Counted from the stretch's first letter, positions 22,542 through 50,946 are shown. The stretch: DNA of 64,000 nt from an uncultured Anaerolineaceae bacterium (GCA_964524485.1 CAZGFR010000004.1:3036-67035); one strand, 5' to 3'. Translations and numbers: made by a program. Notes: generated by a model from the letters alone, not told the origin.

Positions 22542-22549
22542 AACCAAAA

Positions 22550-23694: not shown

Positions 23695-25365
23695 CTATTT
23701 GATCAACGAACGCACCTCTTCGAGGAATTCGTCGTTGAGGAAATCGCCCTTTTGCATCAACGCCTGGATCCGCCCGCTGAGCAGGTTCTTCTCCTGCGGG
23801 GTCAGTTCCTTGGCGGTGGACACGATCACAGGGATGTTGGCGGTCTCGGGGCGGGCGCGCAGGGCGTCCATCACGGCGAAGCCGTCCATTTCGGGCATCA
23901 TCAGGTCGAGGATGACCAGGTCGGGCAACTCACGCTGGATCAACTCCAGACCCTCCTTGCCGTTGGTGGCCTCGCTGATGGTGTAATTGCCCTGCGATTG
24001 CAGGATGCGGCGGATGAGGCGGCGGGCCTCGGCGGTGTCGTCCACGATGGCCACGCGCGGGAAGCGGTCGGGGGCCACGTTGTTGAGCGCGGCCAGCAGG
24101 CCGTCCTCGGGAGTCTCCTCCTTGGGCGGCAGGACGATGTTGCGCGACCAGTTCTCGCCCAGCACGAACTGCTCGGCGGGCATGGTGTGTCCTGTGGCAT
24201 TGACCACTACCACGTCGGTCGGCTTGATGATGCCCGCGCGGATGAGTTTGAACAGACCCGCGAATGCCACAGCGGCGGCGGGTTCAGCGGAGATGCCTTC
24301 CATCTTGGCCAGCACGTGCATGGCGCGGTAGGCTTCCTCGTCTGTGACGCTCTCGAAAGCGCCCTGGGTGGCGTTGACGTATTTGCTCAGGATGTTATAT
24401 GCGCGGCCCGGGTCGCCCGTGGCCAGGGTCTCGATGTGGGTGCGGGGTGAGGTGACAGGCTCGGCGTTTTCCAGCCCGCGCTTCCAGCTGCTGACCATCG
24501 GCGCGCAGCCGTCCGCCTGGATGGGGGCCATGGCGGGCATGCGGTCGGTCAGGCCCATCTCGTTCAGTTCACGAAATCCCTTGTAGACGCCGATGGGCCC
24601 CATCCCGCCGCTGATGGCCTGGATGTACCAATCGGGCGTGCGCCACACGGGGGGCTGGTTCCCGTTGACAGACGCGGGCGGACCCAGCAGGGCGGTCAGC
24701 TGTTCGGCAATCTCAAAGGCGATGGTCTTCATCGCTTCGATGGAGGTGATGGTGCGCGCACCCATGTCGAGGTACAGGTTGCGCTGACGGGCGAACTCAG
24801 CCGCCATCTGCTTGACCTGGTCGTAGGACCCCGTCACCTTGATGACCTGGCTTCCATATAGCGCGATCTCCCGCATTTTGACGGCAGGCACCAGACTGGT
24901 GACGAATGCCCACAACTTGATGCTCGCGCGCGAGGCATAGGCCGAATAGGCGATGGCCACGTTGCCCGTGGATGCTGCCACCATTTCGGTGATGCCCGCT
25001 TCCTTGAGCGCTGCGATCGTGACCGCCGCCTGGCGGTCCTTGAAGGAGCCCGTTGGACCCTGGCGCTCGTCCTTGATGTACAGGTTGGGGCAGCCCAGCA
25101 TCATGCCCAGGTTGACGGCCTGGATGAGCGGCGTGCCGCCTTCACCTAATCGCAGGCTGGGGATGGGGTTGCGGATGGGAAGCAGCTCACGGTAGCGCCA
25201 CAGGTCGAAGGGGCGGTTCGCGATCAGGTGAGTGAAGTTTTCAGCGATGTTCTTGTAATCGTAATCCGCTTCGCGCCACTGGCTGTTACAACGCGGGCAG
25301 TGGAAGGAACTGGGATGGTATTCTGCGACATAGCCGCAGTCCATGCACTTGATGGTGAAGGTCAC
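23695..25365 (-). CDS. Threonine-synthase-like PLP enzyme (N-terminal Zn ribbon) fused to a C-terminal response-regulator receiver domain
   Basis: The Zn ribbon reads CMDCGY..CPRC. The PLP-lysine motif is GPTGSFKDRQAAV, with ASTGN and a GGMGP glycine loop. The REC domain spans aa ~437-556 (VAIVDDTAEARR..LVILDLMMPEMDG..IPVIVSTAKE..MQKGDF). The GTG start has a GGAGAA SD 9 nt upstream, and the first ribbon Cys lies upstream of the first ATG. Confidence 0.85.
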   Translation of the reverse strand: MTFTIKCMDCGYVAEYHPSSFHCPRCNSQWREADYDYKNIAENFTHLIANRPFDLWRYRELLPIRNPIPSLRLGEGGTPLIQAVNLGMMLGCPNLYIKDERQGPTGSFKDRQAAVTIAALKEAGITEMVAASTGNVAIAYSAYASRASIKLWAFVTSLVPAVKMREIALYGSQVIKVTGSYDQVKQMAAEFARQRNLYLDMGARTITSIEAMKTIAFEIAEQLTALLGPPASVNGNQPPVWRTPDWYIQAISGGMGPIGVYKGFRELNEMGLTDRMPAMAPIQADGCAPMVSSWKRGLENAEPVTSPRTHIETLATGDPGRAYNILSKYVNATQGAFESVTDEEAYRAMHVLAKMEGISAEPAAAVAFAGLFKLIRAGIIKPTDVVVVNATGHTMPAEQFVLGENWSRNIVLPPKEETPEDGLLAALNNVAPDRFPRVAIVDDTAEARRLIRRILQSQGNYTISEATNGKEGLELIQRELPDLVILDLMMPEMDGFAVMDALRARPETANIPVIVSTAKELTPQEKNLLSGRIQALMQKGDFLNDEFLEEVRSLIK

Positions 25366-25379
25366 AGAGTGTGTTTCTC

Positions 25380-28300
25380 CTAAGCCGGGCCTGGTTTAAC
25401 ACGCTGGAGGGCGTGTTCGAGACTGGTGATAAGTTCCTTCTCGCTCAATCCGCTCTTGTGGACGAATTGCTGTCCGTAGTCTTCGAGCTGCTTGCGTTGT
25501 TCGGGCGTCAGGTCACCGCTGCTGACGATGATGATGGGGATCTCGCTCAAGCCCTTGTTGGTGCGCATTTTTTCGAGGATCTTGAAGCCGTCCATGTCGG
25601 GCATGAACAGGTCGATGATCACAGCCTGGGGGGCCTGGTTGAGGATCATCTCCCAGCCCTTGGCCCCGCCCTGGGCCAGCAGCGGTTTGTAGTTGCCGTT
25701 GTCGGTGAGCATCTTGCCCATCAGGCTCAGGTCGTTGGGATTGTCGTCGATGACCAGCACTTCGCGGATGGACCCGTCGGGGTTGATGCGGTTGAGGGCC
25801 TGGACCAGGTCCTCTTCCAGGATGGGCTTGACGAGGTAGTCGGAAGCGCCCAGGCTGAATCCGCGCTCCTGTTCTTCGATGATCGAGCAGATCATCACGG
25901 GGATGTCGCGCGTTTCGGGGTTCGATTTTAACTCAGTCAACACCTGCCAGCCGTCGATGCCAGGCATCATGATGTCGAGCGTAACTGCGAAGGGCTTGAG
26001 CTCGGCCACGCGTTTGACCGCCTGCGACGGGTCGCTGAGCGGGATGACCTGGTAGCCCGAGGATTGCAGATAGCGTTCGTACAGGCTGATGACCTGCGGG
26101 TCATCGTCGATGGCCAGGACCAGCTTGCCGCCATAATCGGCAGCCTTGGGTTCGCGATAGACGGGCAGCGTGAAGAAGAAGGTGCTGCCTTTTCCGACTT
26201 CGCTCCTGAGGCCGATCTCGCCGCCGTGCATGCGGATCAGGCGCTGGCTGATGGAGAGGCCCAGGCCCGAGCCGCCCGTCTTGCGGGTGGGGGCATCGTC
26301 CACCTGGGAGAAGGGCTGGAAGAGTTTGACCTGGTCCTTTTCGGCGATGCCTGGACCCGTGTCGGTCACGCCCACGTAGATCTCGGGCTGGCCCGAGGAA
26401 TTGTTCTGGATATAGGCGTCGACCGTAATGGAGCCCTCGTCGGTGAACTTGGCTGCATTGGAGAACAGGTTGATCAGCACCTGGCGGACGCGGATCGGGT
26501 CGGCGTGTGCGTGCGGCAGGTCGGCGGGGATGTTCTTGAGCAGGCGGATCTGCTTGTCCTTGACCAGGCCCGTCGCCGTGGACATGACGCTGGCGATGAT
26601 GTCGTTCATGTTGACTTCCTCGAAGGCCAGTTCCATCTTGCCTGCTTCGATCTTGGAAAGGTCGAGGATGTCGTTGATCAGGCCGAGCAGATGCTGGCCC
26701 GAGTTATAGATGGCGGTCAGGTCGCTTTGCTGCAACTCGGTGATGGGGCCGTCGATGCCCTTGAGGATCACGCGCGAGAAACCGATGATCGAGTTGAGCG
26801 GCGTGCGCAGTTCGTGGCTCATGTTCGCCAGGAAGGTGGTCTTCAGGCGGTCGATCTCGCGCATTTCCTTCACGGCTTCCATCGAAAGTTCGTAGGAGCG
26901 CGCGTTGTCGATGGCGATGGCCACCTGGTCTGCCAGGGTTTGCAGCACGGCCACGTCGTCCTCGGTGAAGGCGTCCGTTTGCGTGGACTGGATGTCCAGC
27001 GCGCCGATGACGCGGTTCCCCACCCGCAGCGGGATGGCCGCCTCGGCGCGGGTGCCTGGCAGCAGCGGATTGGGCTTGTGCAGCGTGCTGGATTCGGTGT
27101 CGTTGACGATGAGGGGCGCACCCGACTGGGTCACCTGGCCCACGATGGACTGCGACCCGACCTGCAGGCTGTGCCGCTGAATCTTCATGGCCGCGCCCGC
27201 TTCGCCAGTGGCTTCCTGTAAATGCGCCGTGAAGCCCGTCTCTTCGACGATGAAGATCGAGGCATGATAGAAGCCGAAGCGTTCACGCACCAGGTTGACC
27301 GTGCGGTTGAACAGGGTGTTCAGGTCGAGGGTGGAGGTCACCAGGCGGGCGATGTCGGACGAGGCTGCCAGATAGGTGTTGCGACGTTTCAGGCTTTCCT
27401 CGGCCAGTTTGCGTTCGGTGATGTTGCGGGCCACCCAGAAGACTTCGTCCTCGTTCAACTTCGAGAGGGTCGCCAGGAACCAGTAGACCGTGGTCCCGAC
27501 GGGCAGGTCGTACTCGAACTGGATCTTTTCGCCCGTTTCCAGGGTCTGACGGATGAGCGCCACGAAGCGGTCGGCCGCCTCGCTGGGCAGCACCTCGTGC
27601 ATGCGTTTACCGAGCAATTCGGCGGGCGGGCGGACGAGCAGGCCAGGGTTGGTCGGCGCGATGCGGATGTAGCGCGCGTCCCCATCCACCACCAACACCA
27701 CGTCTTCCATCGAGGAGAACAGGGTGCGCAGGTCTGCTTCGGATTTGGCCAGCGCATCGCGGGCTTCGAAGCGCTCGATGGCGGCTGTCACCTGGGCGGC
27801 CAGCGGAACAAGCGCCTGGATGTGACCCTCGTTCAAACGGATCTTCGGGTCGTAGGTCTGGATGGTCATCACGCCGCGCACACCCCTTGCCGAGCGCAGG
27901 GGGATACCCAGCCAGTCCTCACCGGGCGCGCCGTCGGGGGTGACCCGTCCCTGTTGTTGGAGCTCTTCATACATCTCAGGCGTCACCAGCAGCGGGGCAG
28001 CTGTGTTGATGATGTAACTGGTCAGGCCCAGCCCGTACTTCATCGGCGGCGGAGGCGGATCTTTTTCATCCACGAAATACGGGAAGTTGATCATTCCCTC
28101 GGAAGGATCGTACAGGGCGATATAGAAATTGTCGGCGGGGGCCAGCCGTCGGGCCGCGTCATGGACGGCGCGCAACAGGTCCGTCAGGCTGGCGGCATTC
28201 AGCGCAGCTTCCGTGATTTGGGCCGTGGCGGTCTGCACCAACTGGCCGATCTTGCTCTCGGTGATGTCCTGGTTCGCGCCGAACGAGCGGACCGTGCGTC

Positions 28301-29060
28301 CCTGCGCATCCTTTTGTATGCGGAAGCGCATGGCCACGTATCCCAGCGTCCCATCGCCGAATGTGACGCGGTGTTCGAGGCCAGTGCTAAAGTTCGGGTC
28401 ACTGGTCTCGACCGACTTCTGGATCTCCATGCCCACCAGAGGGGCATCCTCGGGGTGAACGAAGCGCTCTACATAGCGCGCGGCGTTCATGGTGTAACCG
28501 CCCTCGCGTTCGGCGCTGGTGCGCATCACGTTGTAGAACTGGTCGTTGAACGTGAAGGTGTCGGTCAGGAAATCATATTCCCAGTTGGCCAGGCGCGCAA
28601 TGCGCAAAGCCTCGCTCAATTGGGCTTCGCTGGCGCTCACCTTCTGGAACAGGCGCGCGTTCTCGAGAGCCAGTGAAAGCTGGTCGGTCACCTGCTTGAC
28701 GAGCAACTGATCGTCGGAACTCCAGGTGCGGGTGCGCTCCTCGTCCACCACGTGCATGGTGGCCCAGTTGGTCTGGTCCATCTGGAAGCCGATGGAGATG
28801 CTGGGCGGTACACCCATCTCGTTGCCGTTGTCCACGACGATGGAGTCGACCTGCTGCGTGAGCATGCCCGTGGCCGCCAGGCGCGGACGCGGCGCGGGAC
28901 GGGCCGATGCGACCGCCTTCGGGTCGACGACCTGCCTGCCGCCAGCCTCACGCGGACCCTTGGACTGGCCCCGTTTTGGCTTCGATGGGGCCTCTTCGGG
29001 CTGGATCCCGTCAAAGAGCGTATCAATACGCTTGTCGATTTTCTGTTTCTTCTTTGGCAT
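25380..29060 (-). CDS. Cytoplasmic hybrid sensor histidine kinase: basic N-tail, headless GAF-like module, PAS, GAF, PAS, GAF, HisKA, HATPase, two receiver domains
   Basis: HisKA reads FLANMSHELRTPLNSIIG. HATPase reads NLFSNAAKFT, DTGPGI, GGSGLGLSI. The two REC domains read LVLAIDDDP..VTLDIMMPGIDG and VLVIDDNP..VIIDLFMPDMDG. The kinase-proximal GAF (RFGFYHASIFIVEE..LADQVAIAIDNAR) belongs to the same family as the receptor GAFs. No TM segments are visible. The start is taken at ATG 29060; the ORF-track start at 29204 is a TTG. Confidence 0.85.
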   Translation of the reverse strand: MPKKKQKIDKRIDTLFDGIQPEEAPSKPKRGQSKGPREAGGRQVVDPKAVASARPAPRPRLAATGMLTQQVDSIVVDNGNEMGVPPSISIGFQMDQTNWATMHVVDEERTRTWSSDDQLLVKQVTDQLSLALENARLFQKVSASEAQLSEALRIARLANWEYDFLTDTFTFNDQFYNVMRTSAEREGGYTMNAARYVERFVHPEDAPLVGMEIQKSVETSDPNFSTGLEHRVTFGDGTLGYVAMRFRIQKDAQGRTVRSFGANQDITESKIGQLVQTATAQITEAALNAASLTDLLRAVHDAARRLAPADNFYIALYDPSEGMINFPYFVDEKDPPPPPMKYGLGLTSYIINTAAPLLVTPEMYEELQQQGRVTPDGAPGEDWLGIPLRSARGVRGVMTIQTYDPKIRLNEGHIQALVPLAAQVTAAIERFEARDALAKSEADLRTLFSSMEDVVLVVDGDARYIRIAPTNPGLLVRPPAELLGKRMHEVLPSEAADRFVALIRQTLETGEKIQFEYDLPVGTTVYWFLATLSKLNEDEVFWVARNITERKLAEESLKRRNTYLAASSDIARLVTSTLDLNTLFNRTVNLVRERFGFYHASIFIVEETGFTAHLQEATGEAGAAMKIQRHSLQVGSQSIVGQVTQSGAPLIVNDTESSTLHKPNPLLPGTRAEAAIPLRVGNRVIGALDIQSTQTDAFTEDDVAVLQTLADQVAIAIDNARSYELSMEAVKEMREIDRLKTTFLANMSHELRTPLNSIIGFSRVILKGIDGPITELQQSDLTAIYNSGQHLLGLINDILDLSKIEAGKMELAFEEVNMNDIIASVMSTATGLVKDKQIRLLKNIPADLPHAHADPIRVRQVLINLFSNAAKFTDEGSITVDAYIQNNSSGQPEIYVGVTDTGPGIAEKDQVKLFQPFSQVDDAPTRKTGGSGLGLSISQRLIRMHGGEIGLRSEVGKGSTFFFTLPVYREPKAADYGGKLVLAIDDDPQVISLYERYLQSSGYQVIPLSDPSQAVKRVAELKPFAVTLDIMMPGIDGWQVLTELKSNPETRDIPVMICSIIEEQERGFSLGASDYLVKPILEEDLVQALNRINPDGSIREVLVIDDNPNDLSLMGKMLTDNGNYKPLLAQGGAKGWEMILNQAPQAVIIDLFMPDMDGFKILEKMRTNKGLSEIPIIIVSSGDLTPEQRKQLEDYGQQFVHKSGLSEKELITSLEHALQRVKPGPA

Positions 29061-29820
29061 ATTCCACCAGTTCCTGGGCCAGGTCACGGTATTGGACGGA
29101 GCCGCGGGTGTTGGGTCGGTATTGGGTAATGGGCAGTCCTGCGATGGGGCTTTCGCGCAGTTTGGTATCCACTTCGATGACAGTCTTGAACACGCCCTCG
29201 CCAAAGGTGCTGCGCAACTGCTCGTTGATGTTGCGATGCGTGCGGTTGCGGCGGTCGAACATCGTCACCAGGATGCGATAGGCCAGGTCGGCGTTGCTTT
29301 CCATGCGGATGCGGCGGATGAGGTTCATCATGTTACGCAGGGCGTAAGCCGAGAAATACTCCGCCTGGGTGGGGATCACCAGCAGGTTGGCCGCGCTGAG
29401 CGCGTTCATGGTGATGGCGCCCAAAGCGGGCGGGCAGTCCATCAGGATGTACTCGTATTTCATGTTGCCCGCGCTCTGGATGGAACGGCGCAGGGTGGAG
29501 ATGTACCCCGTCCGCACGGGCAGGAAGTGTTCGGCGCTTTCGATGCGCGAGTTGCACGGCACCAGGTCGAGGTTGGCGATCTCCGTCGTGCGCACGGCCG
29601 TCATCAGCGGTGTGGCTTCGATCAGCACATTGCTCGACGTGTATTCACTCTCGCCGATCTCGATGCCCAGCGCCAGCGACAGGTTGGCCTGCGGGTCGAG
29701 GTCGATCAACAGCACCTTGTGTCCCAGTTCCGCCAGGGCGGCCCCGAGCGAGAGGGTGGTGGTGGTTTTGGCCACTCCACCTTTTTCGTTTGAAATGGCG
29801 ATTGTTTTGGTCATGGTCAT
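29023..29820 (-). CDS. Orphan ParA/MinD-family (Soj-like) P-loop ATPase
   Basis: It has the deviant Walker A (ISNEKGGVAKTTTT), then LLIDLDPQANLS and a Walker B region (ILMDCPPAL). No parB or parS-like partner is seen nearby. Confidence 0.9.
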   Translation of the reverse strand: MTMTKTIAISNEKGGVAKTTTTLSLGAALAELGHKVLLIDLDPQANLSLALGIEIGESEYTSSNVLIEATPLMTAVRTTEIANLDLVPCNSRIESAEHFLPVRTGYISTLRRSIQSAGNMKYEYILMDCPPALGAITMNALSAANLLVIPTQAEYFSAYALRNMMNLIRRIRMESNADLAYRILVTMFDRRNRTHRNINEQLRSTFGEGVFKTVIEVDTKLRESPIAGLPITQYRPNTRGSVQYRDLAQELVEYAKEETENRQAY

Positions 29821-29826
29821 CTCTCA

Positions 29827-32667
29827 CTAGGATTCGGGCCGCTCCGAAACGGATTGCGGCAGGACTTCGATGCGGTTGACGCCCAGGGCGTTCTTCAACT
29901 CCTGCATCGCCAGACGGATCATTTCGTTCGGGTCATTGGTCGAGCGGATGGTCGAGGTAATCTCAGATACCTTGCGTTCACGTTCGGCGCGTCGCAGGGA
30001 GTCCTGAAGCAGGCGGGCATTTTCGAGCGCCAGCGCCAGGCGGTCGGACGCGGTCTGCACCAGCGCCACCTCCTCCTTGGCCCACTGACGGTCCTTCTGC
30101 AGCGACATCACGTTCAGCACGCCGAGCAGTTCGCCGCGCAATTTAACGGGCATGACGATGGTCGGCTGGTGCGCGTCCCCGCCGTCCGTCACAACCACTT
30201 CGCCGCGTTCCAGCGCCTGCTGCATGCTCTCGCTTTGGACGGGCTTGTTGAGCAGCCTGCCGCCGCTGATCGACTGATAATAGCCGACGCTGGCGCTCTG
30301 CTGGGCGAAGCCCTTCCACTCCTGCCGCAGATACTGGCTGTACATGCTCTGCACTTCTTCGAGGGCCTGCTGGGTGCGTTCGAACAGGCGCGCGTTCTCG
30401 ATGGCGATGGCCACCTGGTCGGCCAGGGTGCTCAACACGTTGGCGTCGTTGTCGGTGAACGCCCCGTGCTTTTCGCTTTGCACGTCCAGCACGCCGATCA
30501 CGTCGCCGCGCACAATCAGCGGCAGGGCCATTTCGGAGTGGGTGTTAGGCAGGTCTGGGTTGTTGAAGAAAGCCGAGTCCGCGCCCACGTCGAGGGCGAT
30601 GCGCGGCTTGCCCGTGTTGGCCACATACCCCACGATGCCCGTCTGGCCCACCTGCAAGCGGTGACCGCGCGCCAGCATGCGCTGTCCGCCTTCGCTGTTG
30701 GCGGCCTGCAGCACGGCATAGGTGCGGGTCGGGTCGAGCAGGAAGATGCCTGTGTGATAGAAGCCGAATTTCTCGCTCACGGTACGGGCGATGAGCGGGA
30801 GCAGCACGTCGATACGCTGTTCAGCGGAGATGGCGCGTGAGACTTCGCTGATGGTCTCCAGGTTCCTGGCGCGCTCTTCACTTTGCAGGCGCGCGATCTC
30901 CAGGTCGTAGGTTCGCTCGGCCACGCTCCGTTCCAGTCCTCTCAGCGTATCGGAAAGCTGGCTCACGGTTTGATCCATCACACTGGCAAGCGTGCCGAGC
31001 TCGTCGGAGCGCTGGATGGCGTTCCGCACCGTGAGGTCGCCTGCCTGGATGCGCTCAGCGGTTGCCGTCAGGGACTGGACCGGGGCGACCAGCATCCTTG
31101 CGGATAGATTGGCCAGAAAACCTGCGCCAACGAAAAGGATCACAAGCAACGCCGCGCCCGCGCCCAATTGGCCGAACAAAGGCTGGAGGAAAGTCTCGCC
31201 GGGTTCCACGGCAATCGCCGTCCACGGTTTGAGCTGCGTGCGCGTCAGGCTGGCCTGGTCGTCACCGGGGGAGGTGTCGTTCGTTTCGAGTTCCACAGAG
31301 AAGAAATTCGAATCAGGATTTGCCAGGCCCGCTTCCATGTCGGGCAGGTTCAGCAGGAAATTCTCCTGTGGGCCAGGCGGGAGCCTCTGGGCATCCTGGA
31401 GGTCGGCGATCTGTGTCGCGCTGAACGGGGTGGATGTCTTGTAAAGCTTGTTCTCGTTCTTCTCGTCTGCGAGGATGGTGTGGTTTTCGTCCATCAGGAG
31501 AATGTAGGCGGTGGTATCGGCCGTATTGCCCTTCACAATTAGATTCTGCAGGACGGCCGCATCATATTCGACCACCAGCACCCCCAGCAGGGTGCCGTCC
31601 TCGTCCGAGATGGGGGCGCTGAAATACAGTTCCGCCGCACCCGTCTGCGGGTCGAACAGCACGTCCGAGGCGTAGGCCTGTCGATTCGAGATGACGGACC
31701 GATAGAAGGGGGCATTCGACTCATCGGTGGAGACGTGCGCCTGTTCCTCACTGCTGTCGAAGAGACTCTTGCCCTGGGCGTCGAGGACCAGATAGGTCTT
31801 GATCTCCCTTTGTGTCGAGCCCAGCGCCAGCAGCGTCCCCTGGAGTTCTTCGGCGGTTTCCTCTCCCTTGAGGAAGCCGATCACGCTGGGCAGGGTGGCA
31901 TTGGCCTGGATGGTGTTTAGATTATCCTGGAGGAAGGTGTCTATCTGGTGGGATGCCTGTTGCGCCTTATCCTGCAAACTCTGTCTGGATTTCTGGGTAA
32001 GGATATCCTGCGTGCTCAATAAAGCGGGGACGCCGATCATCAACACGGGCACGATCAACGTGATGAGGTAGGTTGTGTTGAGCTGGGTGCGCAACGACTT
32101 GAACTCGATCTGGGTGGTCAGGTGGATGCCGAAGAACAGCACCACCGCGCCGATGACGATGATGACACCCTGTTGGATCAAAGAGGCGATCGGAAGCCGC
32201 TCGGTGAGCTGCAGTCCATATTCGAAGATGAGGGTGGCGACGCTGAACATCCCGCCGATCACCAGGGCGAGTTGCACGCCGCGCGGCGGCAGCGCCTGCA
32301 GGGCAAAGATGGCCGTGAAGACTATCGCACCCAGAGCGAAAGTGATGCCCATCCCTGAAACGAAGAGCGTAGCAACGGTAAAGGTTAAGTTGACGATGCC
32401 GATGAATATCCAGGCCGTCAGGGAGGTATTCTTCGTCCGCCAGAGCAGGATCGTGCCTATCAGGATGGCCAGGCCCAGGATGGCATTGTCGATGAACAAC
32501 CCGTAATGCTGCCAGGCGCCGCCGCTCTGCCGTAACAGGCTGAGGTAGAACAGCTCGACCAGGATCACGGCGATCACGCCCGCCACACCGAAAGTCAGCA
32601 GGGTGCGATATTGGACGATTTGCTTGCTGGCTTGTCGTCGTTCTTGAGTGGGTTCAGAAGGTTGCAT
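29827..32667 (-). CDS. Receptor paralog R8: ~7 TM + dCache-like extracytoplasmic domain + TM + HAMP + GAF + GAF-like + C-terminal GAF-head stub; no output domain
   Basis: HAMP reads AERIQAGDLTVRNAIQRSDELGTLASVM. The signalling helix reads LERSVAERTYDLE. The GAF core reads KFGFYHTGIFLLD..GHRLQVGQTGIVGYVA..PDLPNTHSEMALPL..LADQVAIAIENARLF. A second module ends in RLALALENARLL. The terminal stub reads ERERKVSEITSTIRSTNDPNEMIRLAMQELKNALGVNRIEVL. Confidence 0.8.
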   Translation of the reverse strand: MQPSEPTQERRQASKQIVQYRTLLTFGVAGVIAVILVELFYLSLLRQSGGAWQHYGLFIDNAILGLAILIGTILLWRTKNTSLTAWIFIGIVNLTFTVATLFVSGMGITFALGAIVFTAIFALQALPPRGVQLALVIGGMFSVATLIFEYGLQLTERLPIASLIQQGVIIVIGAVVLFFGIHLTTQIEFKSLRTQLNTTYLITLIVPVLMIGVPALLSTQDILTQKSRQSLQDKAQQASHQIDTFLQDNLNTIQANATLPSVIGFLKGEETAEELQGTLLALGSTQREIKTYLVLDAQGKSLFDSSEEQAHVSTDESNAPFYRSVISNRQAYASDVLFDPQTGAAELYFSAPISDEDGTLLGVLVVEYDAAVLQNLIVKGNTADTTAYILLMDENHTILADEKNENKLYKTSTPFSATQIADLQDAQRLPPGPQENFLLNLPDMEAGLANPDSNFFSVELETNDTSPGDDQASLTRTQLKPWTAIAVEPGETFLQPLFGQLGAGAALLVILFVGAGFLANLSARMLVAPVQSLTATAERIQAGDLTVRNAIQRSDELGTLASVMDQTVSQLSDTLRGLERSVAERTYDLEIARLQSEERARNLETISEVSRAISAEQRIDVLLPLIARTVSEKFGFYHTGIFLLDPTRTYAVLQAANSEGGQRMLARGHRLQVGQTGIVGYVANTGKPRIALDVGADSAFFNNPDLPNTHSEMALPLIVRGDVIGVLDVQSEKHGAFTDNDANVLSTLADQVAIAIENARLFERTQQALEEVQSMYSQYLRQEWKGFAQQSASVGYYQSISGGRLLNKPVQSESMQQALERGEVVVTDGGDAHQPTIVMPVKLRGELLGVLNVMSLQKDRQWAKEEVALVQTASDRLALALENARLLQDSLRRAERERKVSEITSTIRSTNDPNEMIRLAMQELKNALGVNRIEVLPQSVSERPES

Positions 32668-32690
32668 AGATTTCTCTCACACTAAAGGCA

Positions 32691-35564: not shown

Positions 35565-35587
35565 GGTAGTTGTCTCATTTCGCGGCC

Positions 35588-42514: not shown

Positions 42515-42515
42515 G

Positions 42516-44204
42516 TCAGTTCTGGCCCTTTAGCGCGCCGGGATGTTTCCCGTTCGGGTTCTCGTTCACCTCAGGTGCGGGTGGCGTGTTGAATCGCACT
42601 TCGGCCTCCGTCAGCCCGAAGGCATTGCGGAGTTCGTCGGCAGCGGTCTGGAGCACGGTCTCCATGTCCAGGGTTTGGCGGATGCGGTTGGACACGTTGG
42701 CGATCATTTGGTCGCGGGCGGCGTTCTTTTGGGTCTCCTCCAGCAGGCGGGAGGTGTCGAGCGCAAGCGCCACCTGGGCGGCGATCTCTGCCGCCAGTTC
42801 CTGCTCTCGTTTGTTCCAGGGAGGTGAGGTCTGTTTGCGGCGCAGGTTGATCACGCCGATTGCCTGTCCGCGCAGCTCGATGGGCACGCGCAGGGTCCAG
42901 CCGCTATCGTCGGGCAGGGACTCGCTGGCGCGTACATCGGTCAGCGGGCGGACGCCCAGGTGAGTGTACTGATATGCGGGGGCGCGGCGCTTGAGGTAGG
43001 TCACCCAGGCGTCGCGGGTCTGCAGGGCGGTGAGGGCCTGGAACTGGCCAATGATGGCCTCGCTCTCGGTGAACAGGCGGGTGTTCTCGATGGCGATGGC
43101 CAGTTGGTCGGCCACGGTACGCATGATCTCCACATCGTCTTCGCTGAAGGCGTTGACCTTTTCGGACTGGATGTCGAGCGCGCCGATCACATGTCCGCGT
43201 ACGATCAGGGGCAGGGCCATCTCGGAGTGGGTCAGCGGCAGGTGCGGATTGTCGAAGAAGACGGCGTCCGCGCCTGTGTCGAGGGCCACGCGCGGACGGG
43301 CGCGCGCGGTGACATAGCCGACGATGCCCGTCTGCCCGACGGTCAGGCGGTGGCCGAGGCTCAGCATCTGCCTGCCGCCTTCGGAAGAGGCGGCCTGGAG
43401 CACGGCAAATTGTTCCCTGTCGTCCAGCAGGAAGATACCGACGTGGTAGAAGCCGAACTGTTCGGCAATGTTGGATACCACGCCGTTCAACAGGGCTTGC
43501 AGGTCACGGACTTCGGCGATCCTGCGGGCCACCGACGAGGCGGCTTCGAGCTGGGTGGTCTTTTCGGCGATCTCGGTGGTGCGTTCTTCCACGCGCTTTT
43601 CGAGCAGGGAGCGTTCCTTCTCGAGCGCGTTCAGCGAGGAGCGGGCGTCGGCTTGGGCGTTCTCGAACTCGCGCTGGAGCAGAGCCAGGCCGATGATGGC
43701 GATGGCGTCCAGCATTAGCAAGGCCACAGCGCTGGTGAGCCAGATCTCCCAGGAGCCGATGATCAATTCCTTGTTGATGGGTTCGATCTGCCCGACGATC
43801 AGCATCCAGCCTGCCGCGGCAGTCGCTCCCAGTGAGATGATCGTGGCGACCACCGCCGCGCGGGTCGAGAGCAGCATGGCGGTGAACACGACCGTGGCGA
43901 ACAGGAACAGGCGTGAATCGCCCCAAATGCCCGTGTCGATCAACCCGACCGCACCCAGGGCGAAGGGAAGCAGGATGAAGATGCCCGCCCGCAGCACATA
44001 CGGAATGGGTGCAAACGTGATGACGATCAGCAGAGCGTAGGCCGCAAGGTTCACCAGCGGCGTGAAGGGATCGTTCCACGAACTGAGGGAGGGGATCAAT
44101 GCAAGGAAGGCAAAGACCAACGCGACGCGCAGGATGATGCGCAGGAAGTTCTCGCGCCAGGCCTGCAGGGTGTGGGAGGTATCTCGAATGGCATTCGTGG
44201 TCAT
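42516..44204 (-). CDS. Receptor paralog R3: multi-TM + coiled coil + GAF + GAF-like + GAF-head stub; no HAMP, no output domain
   Basis: About 6 TM segments are followed by LEKRVEERTTEIAE. The GAF core reads QFGFYHVGIFLLD..VADQLAIAIENTRLF. The stub reads AARDQMIANVSNRIRQTLDMETVLQTAADELRNAFGLTEAEVRF. Confidence 0.8.
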   Translation of the reverse strand: MTTNAIRDTSHTLQAWRENFLRIILRVALVFAFLALIPSLSSWNDPFTPLVNLAAYALLIVITFAPIPYVLRAGIFILLPFALGAVGLIDTGIWGDSRLFLFATVVFTAMLLSTRAAVVATIISLGATAAAGWMLIVGQIEPINKELIIGSWEIWLTSAVALLMLDAIAIIGLALLQREFENAQADARSSLNALEKERSLLEKRVEERTTEIAEKTTQLEAASSVARRIAEVRDLQALLNGVVSNIAEQFGFYHVGIFLLDDREQFAVLQAASSEGGRQMLSLGHRLTVGQTGIVGYVTARARPRVALDTGADAVFFDNPHLPLTHSEMALPLIVRGHVIGALDIQSEKVNAFSEDDVEIMRTVADQLAIAIENTRLFTESEAIIGQFQALTALQTRDAWVTYLKRRAPAYQYTHLGVRPLTDVRASESLPDDSGWTLRVPIELRGQAIGVINLRRKQTSPPWNKREQELAAEIAAQVALALDTSRLLEETQKNAARDQMIANVSNRIRQTLDMETVLQTAADELRNAFGLTEAEVRFNTPPAPEVNENPNGKHPGALKGQN

Positions 44205-44207
44205 GGG

Positions 44208-46124
44208 TTAGTCTGCCTTCAACTCGATGGTGACTTCGTCGGTGTCCAAGGCGCGGCCCATTTCCCTGGCGGCGGTCTGCATGATGCCGTCGATGGTGCT
44301 GGAGGACCAGATCTTGCCGGTGATCTCCGCCACCATGCGCTCGCGGCGGGCGGTGGACTGGCTGTCTTCCACCAGGCGTGCATTTTCTAACGCGAGCGCG
44401 GCTTGCGAAGCAATGGCTTCGATCATGCTTCTTTCTTCGGGAGTCCAGTCGTTGTCGCCCGTCAGGTTGATCTGACCGATGATCTGGTCACGCAACGACA
44501 ACGGGATATCGATCTGGCGCACTGTCTCGTGCGGCTCCACCTCGCCGTTTTCAAAGGAGAGGTTTGGTCGTTCGTCGGTGACGCGCTTCCAGGTATCAAG
44601 CAGGTACTGTTGCTGGATGGCGTGCATATCCTGCAGGTTCTGTCGAGCCTCCTGGAACAGGCGCGCGTTCTCGAGCGCGATGGCGATCTGGTTGGCCATG
44701 GTCTGAAGGGTCTCGATGTCCTCCGGGTCGAAGGCGCTATCCTTCGTCGATTGGGCGTCCAGCGCCCCGAGGACGCGGTCGCCCACGATAAGCGGGAGCG
44801 CGATCTCGGAGCGGGTGTACGGGAGCAGCGGATTGTCGAAGCGGACGTGGTTCCCGACGGTGTCCATCACCACCTGTGGCTGGCGCTCGCGGATGGCGGT
44901 CCCCACCATGTTCTTGCCATCCACTTCCAGGCGGTGCTTGTTCTCGCGCAACACGCGGCCTGCATCGCCGGTGGCGTTGCGGAGTTCGGCCCAGCGCTCG
45001 GAGGGGTCCAGCAGGAAGAGGGCCACGTAGTAGTAACCGAATTCCTCGGCGATCAAGTTCACGAGGCGTTCAGTCAGTTCGTTTGCGTCGAGGATGGCGC
45101 TGATGACGCGGCTGACCTGCACCGTGGCGCGCAATTGGGCGGTGCGTTCCTTGACCTGCGACTCGAGCGTTTCCTGAAGGGTGTTCAGACGCCCGGCCAT
45201 GTGGTTGAAGTAAATGGAGACTTCGCCGATTTCATCGGAGGCGATCACGTCCACGCGTTTGGTCAGGTCGCCTTGTTCCAATGCCTGCATGGCCTGGATC
45301 AGGTTGCGCATCGGGGTCAACAGGGTGCGCAGGATCAGGGCTGAGAGGGTCAATCCCAACACAAGGTTGATGGCGCTCGCCACGATTGACTGGACCTGGA
45401 AACTTCTCACCAAGTCTGCGCCGCCTGCTCCGCCGCTGGTTGCCAGGAGGACGTGATGATATCCGATCGGGCCCATCACCAGGATGCCGATGGCGATCAG
45501 CGTCAGCGCCGAACCGATGATCTTGTTTGTGAGACCGAACCCAACCACGTCCTTCAACTGGGCTTCGATGGTCTTGGGGATCAATACCACGCGGACCGGG
45601 CGCAGGAAATAATCGAGGATGTGTGAGGCGAGCGAAGCCCCGCCAAAGGAGGCCACCAGCCCGCCCATGATCCCGTACTGGAACTGCTCGGGCGTGACAC
45701 CGTGGTAGAAGTACAGGAACCCCAACAGCGGGATGGTCTCCCCGATCAACGCGACCAGGAAGGTGGTCAGGATGAAGCGCAGGGGCAGCGAGTTAACCTC
45801 CCGCCAGGCGGCGCTTTCGGTCTTGTCTCCGCTCGAAAGGGGTTTTCCCTGGCTCCACTGGGTCAATCGCAGGAAGGCGTTCTGGCTGGAGTAATACGTC
45901 CAGGCTGCCATGACGACATTTCCAATGGGGACCAGCACCCAGGTGATGCGGAACACCATCGAGATCTGGTCGGCGGTGAATTGGGCGTTGTTTTGCACGA
46001 AGTAGGTGGCCACAGCCGTGCTGACAAAGGCTATAAGCTGAACCACGAGCACCGTGACCGGCAGGTACCAGCCGCCCAGCCGCTTCAAAGCGTTTTGCAG
46101 GAAGGGTGCAAGGTCGAACTTCAT
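44208..46124 (-). CDS. Receptor paralog R2: ~6 TM + HAMP + GAF + GAF-like + GAF-head stub; no output domain
   Basis: HAMP reads LEQGDLTKRVDVIASDEIGEVSIYFNHM. The GAF core reads EFGYYYVALFLLD..MANQIAIALENARLF. The stub reads ARRERMVAEITGKIWSSSTIDGIMQTAAREMGRALDTDEVTIEL. Its start forms an ATGA overlap with R1. Confidence 0.8.
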   Translation of the reverse strand: MKFDLAPFLQNALKRLGGWYLPVTVLVVQLIAFVSTAVATYFVQNNAQFTADQISMVFRITWVLVPIGNVVMAAWTYYSSQNAFLRLTQWSQGKPLSSGDKTESAAWREVNSLPLRFILTTFLVALIGETIPLLGFLYFYHGVTPEQFQYGIMGGLVASFGGASLASHILDYFLRPVRVVLIPKTIEAQLKDVVGFGLTNKIIGSALTLIAIGILVMGPIGYHHVLLATSGGAGGADLVRSFQVQSIVASAINLVLGLTLSALILRTLLTPMRNLIQAMQALEQGDLTKRVDVIASDEIGEVSIYFNHMAGRLNTLQETLESQVKERTAQLRATVQVSRVISAILDANELTERLVNLIAEEFGYYYVALFLLDPSERWAELRNATGDAGRVLRENKHRLEVDGKNMVGTAIRERQPQVVMDTVGNHVRFDNPLLPYTRSEIALPLIVGDRVLGALDAQSTKDSAFDPEDIETLQTMANQIAIALENARLFQEARQNLQDMHAIQQQYLLDTWKRVTDERPNLSFENGEVEPHETVRQIDIPLSLRDQIIGQINLTGDNDWTPEERSMIEAIASQAALALENARLVEDSQSTARRERMVAEITGKIWSSSTIDGIMQTAAREMGRALDTDEVTIELKAD

Positions 46125-50014: not shown

Positions 50015-50017
50015 GGT

Positions 50018-50464
50018 CTATGTGAATTCCCAAACTTGTTCCCCACTCAGGATGCGGCGGATCTGGTCAGGAAAACGGTCGGGGTCGAGCGGTTTGCCCA
50101 GAAAGCCATCGAAGCCCGAAGCGCGGGCTTTGTTCATCTGCTCCTGACTGGCTTCGGCCGTCACGGCAATGATTGGGATGGTCTTCAGCCGCTCGGAGGC
50201 GCGGATCTTCTTCAACGCCCCGTAGCCGTCCTCGTAGGGCAGGCGGATGTCCATCAGGATCAGGTCCAGGCGCGGCAGGGTGTCGGCATATTCCACCACC
50301 TCGTACCCCGAGGTCTTCCACTCGCAGTGGATGCCAAGGTAACCCAACATGCGGGCGATCAGCACGAAGTTGGACACGTTGTCCTCTACCACCAGCACGG
50401 TCGTATCTTTGGGGATGCCTGGTTTGCGGGCGGGTTGAACTTCCATCGAGGTGGGGTTAACCAT
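50018..50464 (-). CDS. Stand-alone CheY-like receiver protein (with ~20-aa N-terminal extension)
   Basis: The protein reads VLVVEDNVSN..LILMDIRLPYEDG..IPIIAVTAEA..GFLGKP. No output domain is present. Confidence 0.85.
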   Translation of the reverse strand: MVNPTSMEVQPARKPGIPKDTTVLVVEDNVSNFVLIARMLGYLGIHCEWKTSGYEVVEYADTLPRLDLILMDIRLPYEDGYGALKKIRASERLKTIPIIAVTAEASQEQMNKARASGFDGFLGKPLDPDRFPDQIRRILSGEQVWEFT

Positions 50465-50840
50465 TGGTGTTCCTCATAAAACGTTCGATCTGATGGGGCA
50501 GGTTGTCGATGTCGATCGGTTTCTGGATGTAGCCGTCGCAACCTGCTTCGAGGGATTTCTCGCGGTCACCGCGCATGACGTTGGCCGTCACCGCCACGAT
50601 GGGCACACGCGTGTGGGCGGGCATCGCGCGGATTTTGGCGGTCAGGGTGTAACCGTCCATGTCGGGCATGTTGATGTCCATCAGGATCAGGTCGGGGTTG
50701 CCTTTATCGAGCAGGCTCAAGGCTGCCTCGGCGTTGGGTGCTTCCATCAACTGGTACCCCTCCGCCTCCAGTACACGGCGGACCAGGCTGCGGTTATCAG
50801 AGTTATCTTCGACGTAGAGAATGGTCTTCTTATCGGACAT
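50457..50840 (-). CDS. Stand-alone CheY-like receiver protein; first gene of the 27-kb block
   Basis: The protein reads ILYVEDNSDNR..LILMDINMPDMDG..VPIVAVTANV..GYIQKP. A GGAG SD lies upstream. Its 3' end overlaps the next gene by 8 nt. Confidence 0.85.
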   Translation of the reverse strand: MSDKKTILYVEDNSDNRSLVRRVLEAEGYQLMEAPNAEAALSLLDKGNPDLILMDINMPDMDGYTLTAKIRAMPAHTRVPIVAVTANVMRGDREKSLEAGCDGYIQKPIDIDNLPHQIERFMRNTNG

Positions 50841-50942: not shown

Positions 50943-50946
50943 TGAG

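Follow-up and report, generated by a model that had tools for sequence, protein, structure and literature searches.

The gene cluster analysed here encodes what we consider, with modest confidence, to be an Anaerolineales multi-receptor two-component system, in which kinase-less receptors would act on one ParA-positioned kinase and, through it, on a metabolic output. An ORF scan of the window (the whole 64,000-nt stretch of DNA analysed, from an uncultured Anaerolineaceae bacterium) identified 14 tightly packed minus-strand genes from 50840 down to 23695, and this layout bears out the coordinates and junctions given for the 14 ORFs in a preliminary description. The cluster, its borders and its neighbors comprise the following features:

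50946-51018, minus strand: tRNA-Gly(CCC), upstream border of the cluster
50457-50840, minus strand: REC1, single-domain receiver, 127 aa
50018-50464, minus strand: REC2, single-domain receiver, 148 aa
46121-50014, minus strand: R1, core receptor
44208-46124, minus strand: R2, core receptor
42516-44204, minus strand: R3, core receptor
40490-42514, minus strand: R4, variable receptor
38304-40493, minus strand: R5, variable receptor
36562-38307, minus strand: R6, variable receptor
35588-36562, minus strand: SBP, orphan lipoprotein solute-binding protein
32691-35564, minus strand: R7, receptor
29827-32667, minus strand: R8, receptor of the same architecture as R7
29023-29820, minus strand: ParA, ParA/Soj-type ATPase
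25380-29060, minus strand: HK, soluble hybrid histidine kinase
29013-29060, minus strand: HK residues 1-16, MPKKKQKIDKRIDTLF, ParB-like N-terminal peptide
28641-28805, minus strand: HK residues ~86-140, GAF fragment, three strands and a helix, LLVKQVTDQLSLALENARLFQ
23695-25365, minus strand: ThrC-REC, ThrC-like PLP enzyme with C-terminal receiver
22590-23531, minus strand: EamA-family (drug/metabolite) transporter, probable fifteenth gene
22546-22577: bidirectional intrinsic terminator, 14-bp stem between A-run and T-run
21804-22541, plus strand: OmpR-type regulator, third gene of the convergent operon
20215-21807, plus strand: REC-HK, second gene of the convergent operon
17597-20230, plus strand: GAFx3-HK, first gene of the convergent operon (17597-22541)

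Overlaps of 4 nt occur at 46121-46124 (R1/R2), 40490-40493 (R4/R5) and 38304-38307 (R5/R6), R6 and SBP overlap by 1 nt at 36562, the ParA and HK genes share 38 nt, and the non-overlapping junctions within the 14 genes are gaps of 1-23 nt. For HK, the mechanical ORF call begins at TTG 29204; the conserved start is ATG 29060. Upstream, the tRNA-Gly gene has its own promoter (12/12 sigma-70 match, 51061-51033) and a terminator at 50943-50920. Sequence scans for internal promoters and terminators that might split the block gave no excess of either within the cluster, and the sequence would fit transcription as a single unit. Because the first strong terminator downstream lies past EamA, at 22546-22577, and EamA follows ThrC-REC in every related locus reaching that far, the co-directional unit most likely continues into EamA as gene 15, one gene beyond the preliminary description. 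A stable hairpin within the 163-nt gap between ThrC-REC and EamA may, in turn, point to separate transcription of EamA. The terminator at 22546-22577 is likely the 3' end of both the cluster and the convergent operon.

Genomic neighborhood analysis reveals that this arrangement recurs. A ParA-based genome scan yielded 24 loci, labeled nearly all as Anaerolineales or Chloroflexota, with the order receptors(n)-[SBP]-receptors-ParA-HK-ThrC_REC-EamA and ParA identities from 99% down to 55%; two more contexts, reached via receptor homologues, show the same arrangement, and the nearest receptor homologues examined all lie within such clusters. No other cluster protein is as conserved as REC2 (83-92% identity among the best 80 loci kept), and in 31/31 long metagenomic contigs found through it the cluster opens with REC1-REC2-R1-R2-R3, an R1-like protein always being the first receptor behind REC2 in related loci. 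Receptor number differs between genomes, from 4 to >8, while REC1, REC2 and R1-R3 are constant, and across genera the receptors are bracketed by REC1-REC2 on one side and ParA-HK-ThrC_REC-EamA on the other. Gene-order conservation had been set beforehand as a refutation test, and the order is kept across genera. On the sequences compared, the cluster is lineage-specific (Anaerolineales) and kept in metagenome-assembled genomes. Groundwater, sediments and wastewater reactors harbor this clade in abundance. Metagenome searches gave hundreds to thousands of relatives of the conserved core proteins, yet all of the proteins carry annotations no more specific than 'GAF domain-containing protein', 'threonine synthase' and the like.

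The eight receptors combine diverse sensors with a constant cytoplasmic part. A hydropathy scan detected 2-9 membrane segments in each of the eight; HK, ParA and the receivers have none. R1 consists of two transmembrane segments, a periplasmic dCache_1 domain, HAMP, a signalling helix, five GAF units, the first and fourth being of the GAF-A type, and a C-terminal tail. The remaining receptors all end in a signalling helix, GAF-A, a reduced GAF and the tail, preceded in R2 by a polytopic membrane region without a Pfam family match and HAMP, in R3 by a MASE11 membrane sensor without HAMP, in R4 by about 8 transmembrane segments and HAMP, in R5 by two transmembrane segments, a periplasmic dCache_3 domain and HAMP, in R6 by a MASE11-like region (below the Pfam cut-off), and in R7 by six N-terminal transmembrane segments, a periplasmic dCache_1 domain, a further transmembrane segment and HAMP; R8 has the domain architecture of R7. 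Pfam assigned only dCache, MASE11, HAMP and GAF domains to the eight receptors and no enzymatic output domain to any of them. This matches the domain content reported earlier, and the overall composition claimed there stands, with a single transmitter and five receivers beside a ParA-type ATPase and eight membrane sensors that lack an output and have a constant GAF module in common.

C-terminal alignment places the constant module in 8/8 receptors, in the order signalling helix, GAF-A, reduced GAF, long exit helix and conserved C-terminal tail. The signalling helix of all eight carries the motif L-E-x-x-V-x-E-[RK]-T-x-[EDQ]-L (PMC8199190) or a one-residue variant. The receptors extend 45-60 residues past the second GAF (in R8, exit helix and tail lie at about 29869-30036, minus strand), with no fused catalytic effector behind the exit helix. 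Matched to a GAF-unit profile of 176 positions, the receptors' reduced GAFs cover positions ~118-176 and the tails positions 10-62; the tail shares homology with the opening third of such a unit. It could be the remnant of a lost unit, but its conservation speaks against this. An AlphaFold model of the R8 cytoplasmic module (mean pLDDT 85.5) shows, in order, a helix, a GAF, a long helix, a small GAF-like domain, a 45-residue exit helix and a short helix, and thus two GAF folds on a long connecting helix. The best Foldseek matches of this model are the tandem GAFs of PDE2/PDE5/CyaB2 and the GAF-PHY region of phytochromes (1MC0, 3IBJ, 3LFV, 1YKD and 8W26, at E about 1e-10), with low overall TM-scores (0.3-0.4) because the relative domain orientation differs. 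Among orthologues, identity is 76-96% in exit helix and tail and 77-84% in GAF-A, and far lower in the sensors (44-57%) and the reduced GAF (36-67%). The 'shared module' signal is in part generic: the motif ALENARL in the GAF C-terminal helix recurs in a very large number of GAF domains, and a profile built from the receptor C-termini matched >113,000 representative sequences, the majority from giant tandem-GAF proteins.

HK is the sole transmitter of the 14 genes, a hybrid kinase with HisKA (E=1.8e-19, H-box SHELRTPLN) and HATPase_c (E=3.2e-27) in one protein. Its order is N-terminal peptide, disordered linker, GAF fragment, PAS, GAF, PAS, GAF-A type, HisKA, HATPase_c, REC, REC. With two PAS and two full GAF domains, the kinase has inputs of its own and might not need the receptors. 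Its GAF-A-type domain directly precedes the phospho-acceptor helix (DHp-proximal) and shares, with the GAF-A domains of R1-R8, a mutual identity of 40-69%; the other GAFs in the window have ≤34% identity to any other, and the GAF-A type is common there only to receptors and HK. The HK fragment is the last third of a GAF unit (positions 137-176 of the 176-position profile), homologous to the receptors' reduced GAF, with 20 invariant positions across 21 sequences. Its strands are unfolded in an AlphaFold monomer (pLDDT 38-60).

ParA (AAA_31, E=1.1e-46) is a ParA/Soj-type deviant Walker A ATPase (KGGVAKTT), with ParA 8RAY and Soj 1WCV as best PDB matches. A MinD-like membrane helix is absent from its C-terminus, which is acidic (EYAKEETENRQAY), making membrane attachment of the MinD type unlikely. 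The HK gene that overlaps it begins with a conserved peptide, MPKKKPIDKRLNKLF, in which M1, K4 and F16 are invariant and K3, K5, K10, R11, L12 and L15 are conserved to at least 90%, followed by an unconserved, disordered linker. In ParB, the motif lies in an N-terminus that lacks structure and consists of a run of hydrophobic residues flanking a central Arg/Lys (PMC12462528); throughout the ParA ATPase family, partner N-termini are a general feature (PMC11407121). The Arg of the HK peptide stands at i+3 from the first hydrophobic residue, as opposed to i+2 in M. xanthus ParB, so the peptide resembles the ParB motif but is not identical to it. In 19/19 loci examined the HK gene starts within the end of the ParA gene, the overlap being 32-38 nt in the 18 with clean start calls and 79 nt in the frameshifted L019. 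Taken together, these sequence features suggest that the partner of ParA may be the kinase, not the receptors.

Five receivers are encoded: two on HK, two stand-alone (REC1, REC2) and one on ThrC-REC. Alignment with E. coli CheY shows that the acid pocket, phospho-acceptor Asp, Thr/Ser and Lys are kept in 5/5, REC1 having acid pocket, Asp, Thr and Lys all present and REC2 an insertion behind helix 1. The term 'CheY-like' used earlier holds for the single-domain form of REC1 and REC2, but membership of the CheY family is rejected, as REC1 scores 62.6 bits with the haloarchaeal CheY model (cut-off 200) and REC2 39.6 bits with PRK10610 (cut-off 189); both are generic single-domain receivers. The reported absence of Che parts is confirmed by Pfam, which detected no MCP signalling domain (PF00015), CheA or CheW in the 14 proteins, and no GGDEF/EAL, cyclase or DNA-binding domain either; CheB, CheR and adaptation enzymes are not present, and a Pfam search of the cluster and its flanks detected no Hpt. 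Lacking an MCP domain, CheA, CheW and a CheY-family regulator, the cluster is not a Che system.

ThrC-REC belongs to the fold-type II PLP enzymes and carries a Cys4 ribbon at its N-terminus and the receiver at its C-terminus. The PALP-REC fusion is found in all 120 matches listed (77-99% identity), of which the taxon-labeled entries are Anaerolineae. Threonine synthases are its best family and structure matches, its orthologues are conserved at 60-99%, and the PLP lysine motif SFKDR (GSFKDRQ in ThrC-REC) is kept in all of them. It reaches none of the curated (NCBIfam) threonine-synthase cut-offs, scoring 248.4 bits with the best model, PRK08197 (cut-off 303), and 152.1 bits with TIGR00260 (cut-off 167.1). 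In alignments to 2D1F, 6CGQ, 2ZSJ and 1UIM, DMGARTITSIEAMKT replaces NSxNPxRxEGQKT, and in all 15 orthologues the NSVNPxR(I/L)EGQKT segment of solved threonine synthases has become D[MLA]GAR[TS][IV]...MKT. We take this segment to hold residues binding the substrate phosphate. ThrC-REC is a candidate effector. The EamA family to which its neighbor belongs includes the threonine/homoserine exporter RhtA and the cysteine/O-acetylserine exporter EamA. In most related loci reaching that far, the convergent GAF-HK/REC-HK/OmpR operon adjoins the cluster and is a possible transcriptional branch. The preliminary description had seen 'no output', which remains true of the receptors; the ThrC-REC fusion, EamA, which it had left out, and the adjoining OmpR operon make it an overstatement for the locus.

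SBP is an NMT1/SsuA-type lipoprotein (lipobox LLTSC) with no ABC permease or ATPase near it. Wherever present in related loci it sits directly upstream of an R7-like receptor, and in locus L001 SBP and the R7 sensor diverge together. SBP is a probable co-sensor of R7, its gene context being that of an SBP-dependent sensor: a binding protein without a transporter, beside its sensor.

In the multi-receptor system that we favor, the diverse sensors (dCache, MASE11, unclassified polytopic) would signal via HAMP and/or the signalling helix into the constant module. The receptors would control soluble HK through direct, homotypic GAF/helix contacts, as suggested by the GAF-A type and the receptor-like GAF fragment that HK carries. 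HK would itself be a partner or cargo of ParA, which would distribute or position it, most likely on the nucleoid; the ParB-like peptide on its disordered tether and the ParA/HK gene overlap point to this. Phosphoryl groups would pass from HK to the five receivers, without an Hpt in the cluster. ThrC-REC and EamA would form the recognizable effector, by which a compound resembling an amino acid would be made and exported in a regulated way, and the convergent REC-HK/OmpR operon may contribute a transcriptional branch.

A more elaborate version, assembly by GAF-fragment complementation with metabolite feedback, is a speculative one to which we give little weight. Here, receptor tails (first third of a GAF) would dock in trans with last-third fragments, carried by R2-R8 and by HK, whose fragment, behind the ParA-binding tether, could not fold alone. 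R1 would be a pure donor and HK a pure acceptor, and docking would link numerous receptors to a single kinase or join receptors into clusters. Under the control of its receiver, the ThrC-like enzyme would produce a ligand resembling an amino acid. The GAF-A pockets of receptors and HK would sense this ligand, so that feedback would reach the whole system, much as in methylation-based adaptation; alternatively, the ligand would serve as a signal secreted through EamA.

Three other explanations compete with the multi-receptor two-component reading. The cluster could be a GAF-based analogue of a chemosensory array, that is, a receptor lattice with an embedded kinase, placed by ParA, with REC1 and REC2 acting in CheY-like fashion on a motility or polarity device. 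ParC and PpfA position chemoreceptor arrays (PMC11407121), and numerous receptors that vary but keep a constant module, a lone kinase, single-domain receivers and a ParA in the operon fit such a design, in which tails (first GAF third) and fragments (last third) could chain proteins. We nevertheless think it unlikely, in view of the missing MCP, CheA, CheW, CheB, CheR and adaptation enzymes, receiver scores far under the CheY family cut-offs, a ParB-like peptide on the soluble kinase and on no receptor, and a ParA C-terminus without membrane helix. Cultured Anaerolineae, moreover, are non-motile filaments.

It is less likely still that the receptors are independent of the kinase, an amplified ligand-binding family amid unrelated two-component genes, with HK using its own PAS and GAF domains. 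Their varying number and identity (4 to >8) would suit a duplicating family, and two PAS and two full GAF domains would supply HK with input; yet the receptors of different genera always lie between REC1-REC2 and ParA-HK-ThrC_REC-EamA, junctions overlap or leave gaps of 1-23 nt, all nearest receptor homologues examined sit in such clusters, the GAF-A type is restricted to receptors and HK, and the C-terminus is strongly conserved in receptors without output. Similarly doubtful is the idea that ThrC-REC is the organism's threonine synthase and that the cluster regulates threonine or amino-acid biosynthesis and efflux. The family and structure matches, the retained SFKDR, the 60-99% conservation and the kinship of EamA with the threonine/homoserine exporter RhtA speak for this idea, but the enzyme falls below every NCBIfam cut-off (248 versus 303 for the best model) and its NSVNPxR(I/L)EGQKT segment is substituted in all orthologues.

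Two-component systems normally consist of one sensor kinase and one regulator, and many-receptors-to-one-kinase designs are, to our knowledge, known essentially from chemotaxis alone. Our literature searches yielded no paper on a signalling design such as this one. The cluster suggests a second, independently built many-receptors-one-kinase solution, made of GAF modules, whose output would be an enzyme and an exporter instead of a motor or promoter. It also suggests a ParA ATPase with a histidine kinase as cargo, a class absent from the cargo listed in a review (PMC11407121). It thereby offers a handle on how output-less sensor proteins signal, on what ParA-family ATPases can position, and on how multicellular filaments integrate many environmental inputs.

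Known systems share individual features with the cluster. NarX/NarQ have the same order of membrane sensor, HAMP, signalling helix and GAF, with a GAF that is PtsP-like, and the best single-domain structural matches of GAF-A include the PtsP GAFs 3CI6 and 3TRC (TM-score about 0.8), the former being the template on which the NarX/NarQ GAF-like domains were modeled (PMC8199190). Unlike NarX/NarQ, the cluster receptors end before the DHp/catalytic domain and carry a reduced GAF, exit helix and tail, the kinase domains residing on a separate soluble protein. The ParC/ParP (Vibrio) and PpfA/TlpT (Rhodobacter) arrays likewise combine variable-input receptors with a constant part, one kinase, single-domain receivers, and an operon ParA-family ATPase with a partner bearing an N-terminal contact region, whereas the cluster lacks the MCP hairpin, CheA, CheW, CheB and CheR, has a HisKA-type kinase and probably uses that kinase as its ParA partner. 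PDE2/5/6, the CyaB2 cyclase and GAF-PHY phytochromes share the predicted fold of two GAF-like domains and an exit helix. The exit helix of these tandem-GAF proteins serves to drive the catalytic domain fused behind it, while the cluster receptors have nothing fused and a second GAF cut to about the last third of the unit plus new strands. OsERS2, an ethylene receptor, attaches by way of its GAF domain to a histidine kinase that is a separate protein, and inhibits that kinase (PMC6981129). The ethylene receptors and MHZ1/OsHK1 thus offer a precedent for a membrane receptor GAF acting on a separate kinase that feeds a phosphorelay (PMC6981129), as is proposed here; they differ in being eukaryotic, in keeping (often inactive) kinase domains, and in having no ParA and no multi-paralogue operon. 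With ParABS, the cluster shares a Soj-like ParA and an overlapping downstream gene with a basic-hydrophobic N-terminal peptide on a disordered tether, but the partner is a histidine kinase without ParB/Srx or DNA-binding domain, and the basic residue is one position off. Finally, the pairing of SBP with an R7-like receptor resembles LuxP/LuxQ and TorT/TorS, in which a transporter-less binding protein is encoded beside its sensor.

The cluster is a co-oriented, conserved gene set. Between 50840 and 23695 it comprises 14 successive ORFs on the minus strand (ORF calling, window), matching exactly the coordinates that the preliminary description had assigned to a GAF-based receptor-array signaling system, and Pfam scans of the block also confirmed the protein list given there. 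In order, the genes encode REC1, REC2, R1-R6, SBP, R7, R8, ParA, HK and ThrC-REC. These components and the elements that border them are as follows.

REC1 and REC2, minus strand: two stand-alone, single-domain receivers (Pfam)
R1-R8, minus strand: membrane receptors with a dCache sensor, a MASE11 sensor or none recognised, HAMP present or absent, and GAF (Pfam)
SBP, minus strand: orphan binding lipoprotein, NMT1/SsuA-like (Pfam)
ParA, minus strand: ParA-type ATPase (Pfam)
HK, minus strand: soluble PAS/GAF hybrid histidine kinase with two receivers (Pfam)
ThrC-REC, minus strand: PALP (ThrC-like) enzyme with a receiver at the C-terminus (Pfam)
50946-51018: tRNA-Gly upstream of the cluster, with a perfect sigma-70 promoter and its own terminator
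22590-23531, minus strand: EamA-family transporter, 163 nt downstream of ThrC-REC on the shared strand
22546-22577, both strands: bidirectional terminator after EamA, the sole strong terminator in the area
17597-22541, opposite to the cluster: convergent operon beyond the terminator, encoding a GAFx3 kinase, a REC-kinase and an OmpR-type regulator

The block genes overlap by 4 nt at 46121-46124, 40490-40493 and 38304-38307, by 1 nt at 36562, by 8 nt between REC1 and REC2 and by 38 nt between ParA and HK (taking ATG 29060 as the HK start), and gaps range from 1 to 23 nt. The first ATG, preceded by a GGAG ribosome-binding site, lies ∼74 nt past the tRNA-Gly terminator, and an Rfam scan of the region returned nothing besides the tRNA. 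Consistent with an undivided block, terminator-like and promoter-like sites within it are no commoner than in shuffled sequence (computational scans, the promoter scan using a sigma-70 consensus of uncertain value for Chloroflexota). The 14 ORFs originally described stand, but the unit probably extends past ThrC-REC, as EamA and the strong terminator at 22546-22577 lie beyond it. The ThrC-EamA spacer (23532-23694, minus strand) contains a stable local hairpin (ACGAGAAGAGCGGG...CCUCUCGCUCUCUCGU) that might act as a leaky terminator or mark a processing site. Because the U-tract of this hairpin is short and weak and the overall fold of the spacer is not better than that of shuffles (z = -1.0), EamA is likely co-transcribed with the cluster as a fifteenth gene.

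The G+C content of the window is ∼62%, and falls to 0.55-0.57 (∼0.62 elsewhere) at 52000-56000, a stretch with several short ORFs, among them a 214-aa ORF with no Pfam match (52083-52727). Elsewhere, a single 841-aa ORF (6010-8535, minus strand) carries an FtsW/RodA/SpoVE (SEDS) domain and a penicillin-binding transpeptidase domain, thus fusing a glycosyltransferase to its partner PBP. A protein of 1229 aa (59168-62857, minus strand) combines an N-terminal PMT_2 glycosyltransferase-like membrane domain with C-terminal NHL beta-propeller repeats.

Genome comparison reveals that the gene order is kept across related loci and is thus not unique to this genome, so that this refuting condition of the preliminary description does not apply. 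A scan with ParA, taking one genome per species, returned 24 loci, 22 of which are labeled as Anaerolineales, Anaerolinea, Bellilinea, Longilinea or Chloroflexota metagenome-assembled genomes. The other two are an unrelated Nostoc ParA (36%) and a receptor-ParA fragment (68-69% identity) on a 3.4-kb contig from a Gammaproteobacteria bin (L021, JAKEGK010000227.1), which is probably mis-binned. Re-annotation by ORF calling and BLASTP recovered the order receptors(n)-[SBP]-receptors-ParA-HK-ThrC_REC-EamA in all loci reaching that far, at ParA identities from 99% to 55%. Past EamA, most loci of sufficient reach carry the convergent OmpR-type regulator and REC-kinase, whose counterparts in the distant Longilinea/Bellilinea are only 34-39% identical. 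A complete small cluster is found in Bellilinea (L023: REC1, REC2, four receptors, ParA, HK, ThrC-REC, EamA), and two receptor homologues chosen from a protein search both lie in clusters of the same kind. In one 2.3-Mb contig (L019, CAWEKL010000009.1), HK, ThrC-REC and EamA are each split over several ORFs, probably through frameshift errors of long-read assembly.

A metagenome scan with REC2 found 515 relatives, from which the best 80 loci were kept. All 31 contigs of at least 9 kb start with REC1-REC2-R1-like-R2-like-R3-like and are variable afterwards; most adjoin the polyprenyl synthetase gene that also neighbors the cluster in the window. Because the ParA loci and the REC2 contigs show this order, REC1, REC2, R1-R3, ParA, HK, ThrC-REC and EamA form a fixed core, and the middle receptors are an expandable set. 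The R1-like proteins after REC2 (L035-L102) fall into size classes of ∼700 aa and ∼1300 aa, with one group of 1040 aa; the difference presumably lies in how many internal GAF units they contain, their place after REC2 being constant. Receptors are far less conserved than core proteins: in loci L004/L005, identities are 87-92% for ParA, 88-91% for ThrC-REC, 74-80% for HK and 57-68% for receptors. REC2 (50018-50464), which has an unusual insertion (GYLGIHCEW) after helix 1, is the best conserved cluster protein (83-92% in the 80 loci), which hints at a constrained partner surface.

R1-R8 are output-less membrane receptors sharing a constant module. A hydropathy scan assigns 2-9 membrane segments to each receptor and none to HK, ParA or the receivers, and alignment reveals a C-terminal module common to all eight. 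It begins with a signaling helix directly following HAMP, or MASE11 in R3 and R6; the motif L-E-x-x-V-x-E-[RK]-T-x-[EDQ]-L (PMC8199190) is canonical or one residue off in all eight (LERSVAERTYDL in R8). The next element, GAF-A, is a complete GAF of a special type. Members of the GAF-A set (R2-R8, two of the five GAFs of R1 and the DHp-adjacent GAF of HK) share 40-69% mutual identity in pairwise comparison; for the remaining GAFs of the window, identity to any other GAF does not exceed 34%. Foldseek matches GAF-A alone to the GAF domains of free methionine-sulfoxide reductase and PtsP (TM-score ∼0.8, 22-24% identity). Relatives of this type bind amino acids or oxo-acids, and by analogy such a compound is a lead for the GAF-A ligand.

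The cytoplasmic part of R8, modeled with AlphaFold from a 52-sequence alignment (pLDDT 85.5), consists of a helix and a GAF, then a long helix and a small GAF-like domain of five strands, and finally an exit helix of 45 residues and a short terminal helix; its Foldseek matches are the tandem GAFs of PDE2/5 and CyaB2 and the GAF-PHY of phytochromes. Mapping onto a 176-position profile of the complete GAF unit, built from giant tandem-GAF proteins, places the receptor elements as follows.

GAF-A: positions ∼11-176, complete
Reduced GAF of R2-R7: positions ∼110-176
Reduced GAF of R8: positions 90-176
C-terminal tail of all eight receptors: positions 10-62, helices 1-2 and strand 1
R1: five complete GAF units, then the same tail as in the other receptors

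As the pieces map to unit positions 118-176 and then 10-62, the reduced GAF and the tail might be read as one GAF, circularly permuted within the chain. This is unlikely, because the exit helix is straight over its 45 residues and the tail is helical, not a strand, in the monomer model, and because R1 also bears the tail behind a complete GAF; the two elements may instead swap inside a dimer. Orthologues keep the exit helix and tail (76-96% identity) and GAF-A (77-84%) best, with sensors at 44-57% and the reduced GAF at 36-67%, and a C-terminal interaction surface would explain this better than a decaying remnant. A profile of the receptor C-terminus, run against 1.8 billion representatives, returned no Rosetta-stone fusion to kinases; it matches mainly giant tandem-GAF proteins and reveals homology between the tail and the beginning of a GAF unit. 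The motif in the C-terminal helix of GAFs is a generic one, common to GAF domains at large.

On the sensor side, R2 (44208-46124), R4 (40490-42514) and the N-termini of R7 and R8 (∼34900-35564 and 32000-32667) contain 5-8 membrane helices assigned to no Pfam family, which may be undescribed membrane-embedded sensor modules. In related loci that have SBP, the next gene downstream is always an R7-like receptor. In L001, a close relative (ParA 99%, ThrC-REC 98%), SBP is 61% and the R7 sensor 52% identical, with neighbors at 84-99% and the R7 GAF-A at 92%. The drop in nucleotide similarity (window 34808-35801, L001 4017-5007) covers exactly the SBP C-terminus and the R7 N-terminal sensor, which looks like a swapped or fast-evolving cassette. 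This joint divergence, with the constant position of SBP, suggests that SBP probably serves R7.

HK, the one kinase of the cluster, combines the GAF-A type with a receptor-like fragment and a ParB-like peptide. In each of the 19 orthologues examined, the HK gene begins before the ParA gene has ended, with an overlap of 32-38 nt in 18 and of 79 nt in the frameshifted L019. The N-terminus reads MPKKK(P/Q)(K)IDKRL(D/N)xLF; alignment of 21 sequences shows M1, K4 and F16 to be invariant and K3, K5, K10, R11, L12 and L15 to be at least 90% conserved, and the linker that follows is variable in length and shows no conservation (the homologue search returned mostly short-contig fragments, of use for alignment only). 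In the AlphaFold prediction, residues 9-15 form a short helix and the chain is disordered up to about residue 105. In Myxococcus xanthus ParB, the ParA-binding motif likewise lies in an unstructured N-terminus, with the hydrophobic residues L11, L15, L18 and I19 flanking a central R13, and a peptide of 20 residues is enough (PMC12462528); contact through the partner's N-terminal region is a common feature of the ATPase family (PMC11407121). By this analogy, the HK N-terminus is laid out like those of ParA partners: in its spacing (I/L, x, x, R, L, x, x, L, F) the hydrophobic positions match ParB and the invariant Arg is displaced by one. The ParA of the cluster is Soj-like (8RAY and 1WCV being its best PDB matches); its deviant Walker A motif is intact, and its C-terminus is acidic and lacks a membrane helix.

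After the linker, HK has a very strongly conserved 55-residue stretch (SLAFQxGQNNWATLQVxDE..R.WS.DEQLLVKQVxDQLSLALENARLFQE) that corresponds to positions 137-176 of the GAF unit and can be aligned with the reduced GAF of the receptors. In the monomer model its strands are unfolded (pLDDT 38-60) and the next helix is confident. Peptide and fragment are both present in the distant Longilinea/Bellilinea kinases, where an inserted PAS separates the two. P0496, a metagenomic protein of 190 aa on a 903-nt contig, lacks kinase domains and consists of a ParB-like peptide, a linker, the GAF fragment and a tail like that of the receptors. It may represent an adaptor form of the ParA partner, or an artefact of the short contig.

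ThrC-REC and EamA form a conserved enzyme and exporter pair. The fusion of PALP and receiver is found in all 120 ThrC-REC relatives among the matches listed (77-99% identical), those with a taxon label being Anaerolineae, under the source names 'threonine synthase' or 'pyridoxal-phosphate dependent enzyme'. Among solved structures, threonine synthases come closest to ThrC-REC, which retains the PLP lysine motif and scores below every curated threonine-synthase cut-off. The segment NSVNPxR(I/L)EGQKT of solved threonine synthases, which we take to contribute to substrate phosphate binding, is replaced by DMGARTITSIEAMKT, a swap kept in all orthologues, the most distant included. A substrate or reaction other than that of threonine synthase is therefore plausible. 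The best curated match of EamA is a carboxylate/amino acid/amine transporter family, below cut-off. Taken together, the two proteins point to an amino-acid-like compound whose synthesis and export would be receiver-controlled. A downstream transcriptional branch might run through the REC-kinase and OmpR-type regulator of the convergent operon.

All five receivers are competent as judged by their residues, each having the phospho-acceptor Asp, Thr/Ser and Lys, and the cluster is classed as a two-component phosphorelay with accessory sensors. In the proposed mechanism, the receptors would control the kinase through direct GAF/helix contacts, for which the ethylene receptor GAF, which binds and inhibits a separate kinase, is a precedent (PMC6981129). 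ParA would position or distribute HK, phosphate would pass from HK to all five receivers without an Hpt, and ThrC-REC and EamA would act as the effector. A more specific version, with receptors docking to HK by fragment complementation and metabolite feedback through the shared GAF-A pocket, we regard as rather improbable.

A literature search found no account of the cluster, of ThrC-receiver fusions or of split GAF elements, and public annotations of the cluster proteins are generic. Membership in a Che-type array is ruled out by the absence of MCP, CheA and CheW domains (Pfam). Compared with known systems, the receptors resemble NarX/NarQ-type kinases up to the GAF but then lack DHp and CA, and they share the fold of tandem-GAF regulators without an effector. 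The ParA-HK pair is like ParA-ParB, except that HK lacks DNA binding. Although the cluster is without any defining Che part, its system logic is like that of chemosensory arrays with ParC or PpfA.
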